Sequence record: PQ356295.1
Direction: 5' to 3' (one strand)
Length of the DNA stretch: 64,000 nt
From: Escherichia phage KKE7M
The position numbers and the translations under genes were made by a program. The notes beneath the pieces are model-generated. The model was given only the letters and a program-made list of their open reading frames with translations, was not told the origin of the DNA and made no database searches. Below are positions 2,543-60,185 of this stretch, piece by piece (the stretch's first letter is position 1; every line of letters begins with the position of its first letter).

Positions 2543-3427
2543 ATGTTTGCTAAAAATTTCAAATCTTGCGTAACCCTGATTTCTGGTGATGGCCTGTCTA
2601 TTTCAGCACTGAACACAGTAACAGACAAACCGCTGGATTTTGTTGTGGCACAGGGGCAACAAGCACATACCATTGGTCTTGTTCGTTTTGAAGATGATGG
2701 TTCCTATGTAAAAGTGTTCTCTGGTTTAGAGGTTATTAAAGTAGGGCAATCTGTTAAGAAAGTTAACAAGAAGAAAGTTAAACGCATTCTTAATGAAAAA
2801 CTCCAGGAGATGGAACAAGAGTTTATTGCTGCAAATCCTACTAAAGAATTCTTCTTGGATAAAGAAAGTAAAAAAGCAATTGAGGCTGATATCGTGTTTT
2901 CTCTGCTTCCAGAAACAGAGGCAGATGATTTCTACAACTATGTTGTTGTAGACACTGAAAACAGTATTACCTATGTTCTTAATGGTTCTAAGAAAATTAG
3001 TGAAGATATTGCTGTATTTCTTCGTGAGGTGTTGGGTACTTTCCCAGTTCTGCCGTTTAGTGTACACGAAGAAGCCATTATTAAAGGTTTTGATACCATC
3101 TTAGAAGAACATGAGGCTGAACGACTGACCCTGGGTAATTATATTAAACTTGAAGATTCTGAAGGTGTGGTTGTATGGAGTAAAGAGTCCCTTTATGAAT
3201 CTCGTGCAGTAGAACTTATGGAAGATGGTAAGCACGTTGTTGCCATTGGCCTGGAATATGACGGTTTCGTTAACTTTATTGTCGATAAAGAATTTAAGTT
3301 GAGTGGTATTAAATTCCCTAAATACTTTAACGATGAAGAAGGATCTTTTGAAGCATCTGTCCTTCTGTGCTTTAATGAAATCCGTGGTATTATGCAAGAC
3401 CTTATCAAGTCAACTATTCAAAAATAA
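2543..3427 (+). CDS. RdgC-like recombination-associated protein (294 aa)
   Basis: ATG 2543 after GAGGAG; MFAKNFK N-terminus and LLP...VVDTEN...LREVLGTFPVLPF segment resemble RdgC. Confidence 0.5.
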   Translation: MFAKNFKSCVTLISGDGLSISALNTVTDKPLDFVVAQGQQAHTIGLVRFEDDGSYVKVFSGLEVIKVGQSVKKVNKKKVKRILNEKLQEMEQEFIAANPTKEFFLDKESKKAIEADIVFSLLPETEADDFYNYVVVDTENSITYVLNGSKKISEDIAVFLREVLGTFPVLPFSVHEEAIIKGFDTILEEHEAERLTLGNYIKLEDSEGVVVWSKESLYESRAVELMEDGKHVVAIGLEYDGFVNFIVDKEFKLSGIKFPKYFNDEEGSFEASVLLCFNEIRGIMQDLIKSTIQK

Positions 3428-3430
3428 TAC

Positions 3431-3488
3431 TTGACTTACTAATTTAATATGTGTTAATATGCCTACCTACTTAGTTAGGTGGGCTTTT
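3431..3488 (+). promoter_or_regulatory. sigma70-like promoter (TTGACT-N17/18-TAATAT) followed by stem-loop GCCTACCTA/TAGGTGGGC and T tract
   Basis: Read directly; lies between genes ending 3427 and starting 3502. Confidence 0.45.
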
Positions 3489-3501
3489 AAGGAGACACAC
3501 C

Positions 3502-3714
3502 ATGAAAAAACTTCTTGTCGGTTTACTTTTAGTAATCAGTTCTTATTCTTATGCTGGTCAAATAACTTTAATTAATTCTGGAGAACAAGTTTCTGGAAGT
3601 ACAAAATACTGTTTTTACTCTAACGGTATGTACGACAAGGTTATAGAGGTTTCTGCAAGTCGTCAGTGTCCCTACACACGAACATTCTCAACAGAGAGTT
3701 CAGATGATGAATAG
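3502..3714 (+). CDS. small secreted protein with signal peptide (70 aa)
   Basis: N-terminus MKKLLVGLLLVISSYSYAGQ is signal-peptide-like; GGAG RBS. Confidence 0.55.
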   Translation: MKKLLVGLLLVISSYSYAGQITLINSGEQVSGSTKYCFYSNGMYDKVIEVSASRQCPYTRTFSTESSDDE

Positions 3715-3722
3715 GAGGTAAT

Positions 3723-4841
3723 ATTAGCGGTTACATTTTAATCCAACCGGAAGACCTGCACAAATATGTTGACGAGAACACAATTCTTGCAATAGACTAC
3801 GATCAAGTGGCGTTCCAAGCGTCTTCAGCTTTAGAGCAAAGAAAAATCCACGCTGTACATAAGGCTTCCGGTAATGTAAAAGAGTTTGAAACAAGAACAG
3901 ATTTTTGGGGTAAGTCTTCAAAAAATATTGGAGGATGGTTAGGAGCACTTAACGCGCAACGCGAAGCTGCTGGTAAGAAGTTGTTCTCTAGAGAAGATTT
4001 TGAAATAAAAGATGTTCAAATAGTTCCAGATAATATTTCTTTTACGTTTCAAGCTGCAAAGACAAAAATAACCCAGATGATGGATCACCTAAAACTTCAA
4101 AAGTATTGCGGTGTCATCGGGGTAGGAAAAACCTTCCGGCATTCTTTCAAAATGCCAAAAGAATATAAATCAGAACGATCAGATTTAAGACCAATCCATT
4201 TATCAGATACTAAAGATTATCTAGTTGAAAAACATAACGGTGACGTTGTTACTGGTATTGAGGCAGATGATGCTTTAGAAATCTATGGGTATGCAGGGTA
4301 TAAAGCCTACAAGGAAACTGGTAAGTTTTCTCATATTGTAGCGTCTATCGACAAAGATAGCTTGCACACACCAAGTTTACTCTTTAACTTTTATAAAGAG
4401 GATGGTGTTTATAAAAATCCTTGTATTATTCTGATTGATGAATCTATCGGCGATATCTGGATCGTAGAAAAAGGTAAGAAAAAAGAAATTAAGGGCTGGG
4501 GTAGTTACTGGTTAGCTTATCAAATGCTAATGGGCGATAAGACAGATAGTATTCGACCTTACCAAGATTTCGATGTTAAGTTTGGAGATATTACTTGCTT
4601 TAATCTTATTTCCAAATGTAAAACACAGGCTGAACTTTTTCAGACAGTTAAAGATCAGTATTATGAATGGTTCCCAGATGGCGTTAAATTTACTTCTTGG
4701 GATGGTGAAGAAGTAGAGATGACAACTGACGAATGGATAGAGACAATTTTTCAGTTGGTATATATGAAACGTTGGGCGAATGATGAAACAACTTTTGAAA
4801 GTATGCTACAAGCATATATTTCAGAGCAGGAGGAACATTGA
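3723..4841 (+). CDS. rnh: FEN-family 5'-3' exonuclease / RNase H (T4 rnh or T5 D15-like)
   Basis: GIEADD, SIDKD, GDKTDSI acidic motifs; conserved N-terminal ILAIDYDQ lies upstream of the first GTG (3807), so start is probably non-canonical ATT at 3723 after AGGAGG. Confidence 0.55.
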   Translation: MSGYILIQPEDLHKYVDENTILAIDYDQVAFQASSALEQRKIHAVHKASGNVKEFETRTDFWGKSSKNIGGWLGALNAQREAAGKKLFSREDFEIKDVQIVPDNISFTFQAAKTKITQMMDHLKLQKYCGVIGVGKTFRHSFKMPKEYKSERSDLRPIHLSDTKDYLVEKHNGDVVTGIEADDALEIYGYAGYKAYKETGKFSHIVASIDKDSLHTPSLLFNFYKEDGVYKNPCIILIDESIGDIWIVEKGKKKEIKGWGSYWLAYQMLMGDKTDSIRPYQDFDVKFGDITCFNLISKCKTQAELFQTVKDQYYEWFPDGVKFTSWDGEEVEMTTDEWIETIFQLVYMKRWANDETTFESMLQAYISEQEEH

Positions 4842-5800
4842 GTAAATTAACAGACGAACAGAAAGCCTTGATTGTATCTATGAAAGCACAAGGTTACTCT
4901 TCGCGTAAGATTGCACAAGAGGTGTTGGGAAGTTCTACTAAGAAGAGCACAGTAAATGATTACTTAGCTCGTGTAAATTCACCACATCGCGGTGCTCCGC
5001 AAGACAAAGGTGGGCCAGTAATTAAAATTATTGACGTAGAGACAGCACCGGAGATTGTGTATAGCTTCTCACGTTTCAAAGCCTTTATTTCACCTGAACA
5101 AGTTATTCGTCGAGGTTACTTGCTTTCCTATTCATCTGCTGACTTAGAAACAGGAGAAGTAGAAGGTAAGAACCTTAGCAATTACCCTCTGTTTGACATA
5201 GATCATACCGATGATTGGGAATTATGTCAAGATCTGTGGCACTTGCTTGACGATGCAGATATTGTGATCGCGCATAACGGTATTAAGTTTGATAAGGCTT
5301 ATATTAACCAACGTTTTGCTTTTCACGGTATGGAGCCACCATCACACTATGTTGTAATTGATACACTCAAGGCAGCTAAGAAGCAGTTTGCACTACCTTC
5401 TAATGCGCTTAAAGAAATGTGTTTGTATTTTGATACAGAAAACTTTAAACTTGACAATGAAGGTTTTCCTTTGTGGAAAGCATGTTGTGAAGGAGACAGA
5501 CACGCCTTCTTCCGTATGCAAACATACAACGATGGTGATGTTGTTTCTCTTAGAGATCTTTACATCAAACTTCGTGCGTGGATTCCACAACATCCTAACG
5601 TATCTGCATTCTATGACGATGAAAAACTTCGTTGTCCTCGTTGCGGTAAAGAGCACCTTGAAGTTGTTCCTGGTAAGGTTTACACAACAGCGGTTAGTAC
5701 ATTCCAAGTGCTAAGATGCACATCATGTAATAGCCTGTCTCGTGGACGTGTTAATTTGCGTAGCAAAGAGAAGCGTGTAAACACTGTTATTGGAATTTAA
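4838..5800 (+). CDS. DEDD-type 3'-5' exonuclease with N-terminal HTH and C-terminal zinc ribbon (320 aa)
   Basis: TTG start after GGAGGA; IDVETAP, IAHNGIKFD, YNDGD exo motifs; CPRCG...CTSCNS. Confidence 0.6.
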   Translation: MSKLTDEQKALIVSMKAQGYSSRKIAQEVLGSSTKKSTVNDYLARVNSPHRGAPQDKGGPVIKIIDVETAPEIVYSFSRFKAFISPEQVIRRGYLLSYSSADLETGEVEGKNLSNYPLFDIDHTDDWELCQDLWHLLDDADIVIAHNGIKFDKAYINQRFAFHGMEPPSHYVVIDTLKAAKKQFALPSNALKEMCLYFDTENFKLDNEGFPLWKACCEGDRHAFFRMQTYNDGDVVSLRDLYIKLRAWIPQHPNVSAFYDDEKLRCPRCGKEHLEVVPGKVYTTAVSTFQVLRCTSCNSLSRGRVNLRSKEKRVNTVIGI

Positions 5801-59933: not shown

Positions 59934-60185
59934 TTAAAATTCAACCACCACTTTATCGAGGTGCTCTGCTTCAACTTGATCTAATGTTAACACCTCAACT
60001 AAACCCTTGTCAATACCTAATTTAATAACATCAACATATTGTCCAAACAGATCCTGGATAGATATCTTGTGTTCGACAACAACAACCACTTCATTCCCTT
60101 TTGTGAATTCTCTCCATACACGTCCACATTTGAAAATAAAGTCTGCTTCATCTGCTGTTATCATTTTAGGTTTGATACTTAACAT
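59934..60185 (-). CDS. hypothetical protein (83 aa)
   Basis: ORF. Confidence 0.45.
   Translation of the reverse strand: MLSIKPKMITADEADFIFKCGRVWREFTKGNEVVVVVEHKISIQDLFGQYVDVIKLGIDKGLVEVLTLDQVEAEHLDKVVVEF

Follow-up and report, generated by a model that had tools for sequence, protein, structure and literature searches.

In Escherichia coli, the four codons AUA, AUC, AUU and CUG initiate translation at 1-2% of the level of AUG, with methionine still at the N terminus, and the only confirmed non-canonical starts in this organism are those of infC and pcnB (10.1101/063800). The AUU codon of infC follows a preceding cistron (modelled as UAA GGU AUU) and de novo initiation at it was comparable to reinitiation, while in another reporter AUU and UUG were 6-8 times below AUG and GUG (PMC3592434). 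Initiation factor 3 (IF3) acts against starts at AUU, AUC and AUA, two of which, AUU and AUC, serve as the start in infC orthologs (PMC5499595). Here we describe a probable start of this type in a nuclease gene of Escherichia phage KKE7M (sequence record PQ356295.1), of which a stretch of 64,000 nucleotides, referred to as the window, was analysed. The gene is predicted to encode a flap endonuclease (FEN) or 5'-3' exonuclease of 372 codons plus TGA (3723..4841), and we consider it very probable, from comparison with related phages, that its translation starts at ATT 3723 and that GTG 3807, the start used in public records, is the internal codon Val29. All genes and signals located below by window position are on the plus strand. 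The comparison does not point to a new mechanism, and it is well supported that this would be a conserved and overlooked case of an infC/pcnB-type AUU start in a phage.

The likeness to infC and pcnB covers the non-canonical AUU itself (AUC in some orthologs) and its conservation among orthologs, as well as the location just 3' of the stop codon of the preceding cistron and a yield below that of AUG (PMC5499595, PMC3592434, 10.1101/063800). A sequence-only reading of this DNA had already drawn the parallel to infC, and it holds in two respects, the codon used and the location shortly after an upstream cistron. The two systems differ in that infC is autoregulated, its AUU acting as the sensor because the product IF3 discriminates against this codon, whereas the phage gene, with its putative AUU start, encodes a DNA nuclease, any dependence on IF3 would be passive, and the orthologs also use AUA and CUG. 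The genes of T5 D15, T4 RNase H and bacterial ExoIX and Pol I use ATG. In comparison with the T5 D15 flap endonuclease, T4 RNase H and the 5' nuclease domain of ExoIX and Pol I (PF02739 and PF01367), the nuclease of the window is too divergent for Pfam and PDB sequence searches, and it is about 100 residues longer, with insertions and a C-terminal extension. Orthologs from rV5-like phages (Vequintavirinae) and from Plateaulakevirus have the same AGGAGG-N4 geometry and start in the same N-terminal alignment column. Their starts are canonical though weak (TTG or GTG) and are therefore found by gene callers, whereas the phi92/phAPEC8-like clade is one tier weaker.

The reading frame of the nuclease is closed at the 5' side by tandem in-frame TGA codons (3705..3710; 3705-3707 and 3708-3710), as read from the sequence. 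Reading the codons 3711-3806 in this frame gave no ATG, GTG or TTG, the first canonical in-frame codon being GTG 3807. A Shine-Dalgarno sequence AGGAGG (3713-3718), or AGGAGGT when extended to 3719 (3713..3719), stands 3-4 nt 5' of the proposed initiation codon ATT (AUU, 3723..3725), with TAAT between AGGAGG and ATT. This AGGAGG-N4 spacing is the commonest among real gene starts in the window (9 of 18). These positions agree with those of the sequence-only reading, which had also noted that the peptide ILAIDYDQVAF (encoded at 3783-3815) begins upstream of the GTG and that no canonical start lies between the in-frame stop and GTG 3807. The stretch of 32 codons free of canonical starts is the longest among the 26 long open reading frames (ORFs) of the window. 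By a rough estimate its chance is about 0.95^32, or approximately 0.2, which is not rare; as a gap of this size is expected about one time in five, evidence that the stretch is translated is essential to the case. Other candidates for non-canonical starts in the window were AGGAGG sites lacking a canonical start and the ORF that ends at 60185; these were either internal sites or without a Shine-Dalgarno sequence.

The region 3400-4900 was found in 55 phage records at 95-99% identity, mostly from Justusliebigvirus (phi92-like; Stephanstirmvirinae) of E. coli, and the start sequence was identical in the six copies that were read, namely phi92, two IMG/VR contigs, two metagenome contigs and the window. 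We collected about 27 distinct start regions from IMG/VR scans, metagenome contigs and three further look-ups, with protein identity down to about 47%. The codon in the column of ATT 3723 was ATT in 9, ATC in 10, ATA in 4 and CTG in 1 of 24 distinct sequences, and the three look-ups added ATT (Klebsiella phage FBKp34), ATT (lineage L115) and ATA (lineage L116). ATG, GTG or TTG occurred in this column in none of the approximately 27 sequences. AGGAGG or GGGGG was located 4-5 nt 5' of the start codon in nearly all relatives, and one had AGGA only. In four lineages (L014, L092, L094 and L098) an in-frame TAA directly precedes the ATC, which means that the reading frame opens at that very codon. 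Phapecoctavirus, with a 77% identical protein, reads GGGGGAAAT ATT AGC GGT TAT at the start; ATC stands at the equivalent of 3807, and no canonical codon occurs in frame before codon 144.

In the outgroup phages rV5, phiA009, Mydo, K54_rec4 and PAK_P3 a canonical start codon, preceded by a Shine-Dalgarno sequence in the same geometry, falls in the alignment column of ATT 3723. The start reads GGAGGGTCT TTG in rV5, AGGAGGAGAT TTG in Aeromonas phage phiA009, GAGGGCTA GTG in Proteus phage Mydo, AGGAGGAATG TTG in Klebsiella phage K54_rec4 (whose start may be TTG or ATG) and ATG in Pseudomonas phage PAK_P3. The sequence-only reading had pointed to alignment with homologous 5' nucleases as a check, and to homologs starting at the equivalent of 3807, or a corrected sequence with an ATG, as outcomes that would speak against it. 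Neither was seen, as all five outgroups start in the ATT column and no relative within the clade has ATG at the start position. In a set of 70 relatives at greater distance, the start with the best support was ATG in 38, TTG in 21 and GTG in 11, with TTG and GTG dominating in the nearest outgroups. In a neighbour-joining tree the 23 full-length lineages with near-cognate starts form one clade, within which at least about seven start-codon changes took place, none of them to a canonical codon. Judged from these alignments, a second-tier start (AUU, AUC, AUA or CUG) appears to have been inherited and kept throughout the phi92/phAPEC8-like clade. With a canonical start absent, the Shine-Dalgarno sequence properly spaced and the arrangement conserved across orthologs, the site has the properties expected of a near-cognate start. 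The sister lineages L024 (CTG) and L023 (ATA) differ at this codon (601-603) by two substitutions, which lead either via ATG or via the non-start CTA; this lineage may have had a canonical ATG temporarily and lost it again.

Selection on the codons upstream of GTG 3807 was measured by pairwise Nei-Gojobori counts of nonsynonymous (pN) and synonymous (pS) differences, comparing the window with 13 relatives and relatives with one another. Codons 9-28 are under strong purifying selection (pN 0.04-0.20 versus pS 0.5-1.3), and codons 2-8 gave pN 0.06 versus pS 0.5 among closer relatives, with looser constraint at long range. As pN is far below pS over codons 2-28, frame 0 is read from near the ATT. 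The AUU initiation proposed by the sequence-only reading thus has behind it the start column of the homologs, the Shine-Dalgarno geometry, the in-frame stops and the conservation of the upstream codons.

The 372-residue product of 3723-4841 is predicted to be a 5' nuclease of the FEN family, a divergent member of the FEN fold whose activity is likewise a prediction. The protein of the window had no Pfam match at E<=0.01 and did not reach the gathering score of the FEN-family Pfam entries, a PDB sequence search with phmmer gave no match, and a profile of seven sequences gave only a marginal match in PDB, to an unrelated protein. A structure model was therefore needed. The sole direct sequence match was to phrog_107, annotated as 'exonuclease' (E=1.5e-60). 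A search of a large protein collection yielded 68 homologs, the most distant of which carry PF02739 and PF01367; among the 41 homologs that were aligned, PF02739 was found on 8 and PF01367 on 3. The predicted structure (pLDDT, the predicted local distance difference test, of 96) contains the three-dimensional fold of the 5' nuclease domain. In the fold comparison the scores were 16.8 for a plastid 5'-3' exonuclease, 15.2 for the M. smegmatis FEN, 14.8 for E. coli ExoIX, 14.4 for T5 exonuclease and 13.8 for T4 RNase H, and Foldseek was in agreement with these matches. The label 'FEN/RNase H' of the sequence-only reading is thus backed by the fold and by homologs matching PF02739, though the window protein itself has no Pfam match.

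Seventeen positions were invariant in the 41-sequence alignment, namely D25, D27, F55, R139, Y148, K149, P157, E180, D182, D183, D210, K211, D212, G260, Q267, D272 and D275. The invariant carboxylates among them (D25, D27, E180, D182, D183, D210, D212, D272 and D275) were read from the alignment. The codons of D25 (GAC 3795-3797) and D27 (GAT 3801-3803), together 3795..3803, both lie upstream of GTG 3807. D25-x-D27 lines up with the N-terminal IDGD/VDGD of the homologs matching PF02739, and from this (I/V)DGD motif the two residues are putative metal ligands. In the model, well-ordered strands and helices are formed by residues 5-7, 9-14 and 21-25, with a beta-strand at 5-7. According to the model, a protein starting at Val29 would be devoid of D25 and D27 as well as of the ordered elements between residues 5 and 25.

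The alternative that survives best, although we regard it as improbable, is initiation at a downstream in-frame near-cognate codon (ATT 3735, ATC 3741 or CTG 3756), from which a product shorter by 4-11 residues would be made with D25 and D27 kept. Such a start would fit the conservation of Ile at codons 5 and 7, the ATG that L107 has at codon 7, the ATG at codon 9-10 of L115 and L116, and the weaker conservation of codons 2-8 at long range. However, the only Shine-Dalgarno sequence is 16-37 nt away from the three candidate codons, L023 and L024 have GAA at codon 5, and CTG 3756 is replaced by CTT, CTA or TTA elsewhere. Conservation of Ile 5-7 is explained by the beta-strand in the model, and the Shine-Dalgarno-to-start geometry is conserved for codon 1 only. 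In the metagenomic lineages L115 and L116 (proteins P0025 and P0030; about positions 474-503) the gene callers pick the ATG at codon 9-10, while the Shine-Dalgarno sequence, the ATT or ATA and a homologous N-terminal peptide persist 8-9 codons 5' of the called ATG; from these sequences, the two phages might make two N-terminal isoforms.

Several observations weigh against initiation at ATT 3723 or against the explanation that we attach to it. With 3-4 nt, the spacing is towards the lower limit of what is usual. At a conserved Ile or Leu inside a protein, ATT, ATC, ATA and CTG would be seen as well; the codon set alone is therefore ambiguous, and it is the in-frame stops and the Shine-Dalgarno geometry that carry the argument. 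Codon 7 (ATC 3741) is also a conserved Ile, replaced by ATG in L107, and the ATG at codon 9-10 in L115 and L116 means that shorter products are possible there. The lack of any change to ATG in at least seven changes is only marginally significant, approximately (2/3)^7 = 0.06 by a rough estimate, and is suggestive only. RNA structure around the start gave nothing in its favour, as the fold was no better than that of shuffled sequences (z = -0.78) and no conserved structure was found; an apparent pairing of the Shine-Dalgarno sequence was not conserved in Phapecoctavirus, and there was no Rfam match. Finally, low dosage and coupling, discussed below, are parts of the explanation that we infer.

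It is very unlikely that the public annotation is right and that a protein of 344 residues starts at GTG 3807 (3807..3809) with the 28 upstream codons untranslated. GTG is the first canonical codon and was chosen in the five Justusliebigvirus GenBank records inspected, phi92 included, all of which have a coding sequence of 344 amino acids from this GTG. However, no Shine-Dalgarno sequence precedes it, and the authors of the phi92 record remarked on this coding sequence 'No RBS identified; weak Prodigal statistics'. The codon is not conserved, being ATC, ATT or ATA in most relatives, and the 28 upstream codons, which are under purifying selection, include the invariant D25 and D27 and ordered elements of the fold. 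The same logic would cost Phapecoctavirus 143 residues, and its GenBank coding sequence does begin at codon 144, giving 229 amino acids. In total, seven of seven inspected phi92-, phAPEC8- and FBKp34-like GenBank records give 344, 229 or about 345 residues versus about 372. Among the predicted proteins of the clade in the large protein collection, none starts at the codon in the ATT column. If translation starts at the ATT, as the alignments suggest, the seven inspected records are truncated and lack the invariant D25 and D27, which we hold to be an annotation error with the same high confidence as the ATT start on which it depends. The ATT start predicts the N-terminal tryptic peptide (M)SGYILIQPEDLHK, and a start at GTG 3807 predicts the N-terminal MAFQASSALEQR.

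Recoding, in which the nuclease would be fused to the upstream small protein by readthrough or programmed frameshift or made by a frameshift from the out-of-frame ATG 3766, is less plausible still. The upstream ORF shares the frame of the nuclease in several lineages, with a single TAG between the two; a database protein (P0002, 444 amino acids) resembles a fusion, and ATG 3766 is present in many relatives. However, lineages differ in the frame offset between the upstream cistron and the nuclease (0, 1 or 2) and also in the identity of the upstream gene, and the additional in-frame TAA abuts the start in four lineages. The frameshift considered as an alternative in the sequence-only reading fails on this offset and on the TAA. 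In addition, a signal peptide from the upstream protein makes little sense on a replication nuclease. The ATG 3766 arises where a Tyr-Val codon pair (TAT GTx) is read in another frame, which ends after 6-9 codons, and frame 0 is under selection already 5' of 3766. P0002 itself (L112, 601-1935) was rejected as an artefact, as there is a TAG at the position of a 'Q' and translation of the contig with table 11 does not give the protein. The gene caller read this in-frame TAG as Gln, apparently by applying an alternative genetic code to a short contig; the cluster of P0002 has 48 member sequences.

A sequencing or assembly error, or a pseudogene that lost its ATG, was also raised by the sequence-only reading and has only the missing canonical start in its favour; it is scarcely credible with 55 records at 95-99% identity, six copies sharing the start sequence, the same architecture in relatives (isolates, IMG/VR and metagenomes) to about 47% protein identity, and an intact ORF under purifying selection.

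For initiation at AUU 3723 we propose that the strong Shine-Dalgarno sequence AGGAGGU would direct ribosomes to the codon, which would be read by initiator tRNA as a near-cognate. The yield is expected to be low, perhaps a few percent of that of AUG, and may be partly offset by the strong Shine-Dalgarno sequence and by ribosomes that terminate 8 nt upstream, through coupling to or reinitiation after the preceding cistron. The TAG stop of this cistron (3712-3714) lies within the Shine-Dalgarno sequence, at a distance of 8 nt from ATT 3723. In every lineage the preceding cistron ends 8-18 nt 5' of the nuclease start, and the TAG is often part of TAGGAGG. In L115 the upstream gene is a different one (a methyltransferase), and its stop is still within 8-18 nt of the start. 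A stop at 8-18 nt suggests translational coupling. The work on reinitiation at non-canonical codons in PMC4648390 concerns eukaryotic cells and is set aside here. The purpose of the arrangement is probably a low dosage of the potentially harmful DNA nuclease, possibly with sensitivity to IF3, and the family-wide drift from ATG to TTG or GTG and then to ATH or CTG would reflect selection for low dosage. We propose tentatively, giving it rather less than even weight, that the weak start is under active selection as a means of dosage control or regulation and is more than a tolerated defect.

The preceding cistron (3502..3714) encodes a protein of 70 amino acids with a signal peptide (according to a SignalP note in the phi92 record), a homolog of phi92 gp086 that belongs to phrog_4641. 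It has an acidic C-terminal tail (DDE) and lies directly 5' of the nuclease in most of the clade. The gene order is an RdgC-like gene, the 70-residue protein, the nuclease and a DnaQ-like 3'-5' exonuclease, and in a cluster of replication and recombination genes such as this, a secreted protein is an odd neighbour. An out-of-frame mini-ORF (ATG ATG AAT AGG AGG TAA, within 3704-3721) ends one nucleotide before ATT 3723; it is created by the acidic tail codons GATGATGAA and is probably incidental to the Asp-Asp-Glu codons. A consensus scan gave a sigma-70-like promoter candidate at 3431..3460 (TTGACT, 18 nt, TAATAT with TG). The candidate is weak, as shuffled sequence contains at least as many such sites; a promoter is annotated at the corresponding place in Klebsiella phage FBKp34. 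From its position it may be the start of a transcript carrying the small ORF and the nuclease gene.

Downstream, the DnaQ-like gene (4838..5800; PF13482 on a homolog) is next in the same tightly packed gene run. Its apparent start TTG 4838 overlaps the stop of the nuclease gene (TTGA) and has AGGAGG 4 nt upstream. GenBank records differ in this start, as most use TTG 4838 and phage Antha a later codon (locus 1981, about window position 4880). Among the records matching the nuclease region, several labelled 'Campylobacter phage' (host C. jejuni; MG065639, MG065645, MG065656, MG065689 and others) are about 99% identical to it, as is the Serratia phage record OK210077 to the E. coli Justusliebigvirus region. 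This suggests that the Campylobacter and Serratia host labels are wrong or that the phages were contaminants in those studies.

An ATT-type start of this nuclease was not described in the searchable literature, of which our coverage was incomplete and did not include the phi92 genome paper. For work on the enzyme the start codon matters directly, as cloning the ORF as annotated would probably yield an inactive protein. These phages infect E. coli K-12, and the nuclease would be a third, comparatively well-supported case in E. coli after the two confirmed ones. With natural variants of all four second-tier codons and TTG, GTG and ATG in the outgroups, the family offers a system for studying the evolution of start-codon strength. 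T5 FEN has been shown to trigger Retron-Eco7 by cutting multicopy single-stranded DNA (msDNA; PMC12640716). If the weak start does serve as a dosage device, the nuclease would be kept at trace level and its synthesis could follow the ratio of IF3 to ribosomes, acting as a timer; a possible, speculative benefit would be the avoidance of host defences that sense phage FEN activity. It would then be the first conserved, functionally motivated start of the AUU class described in a phage.

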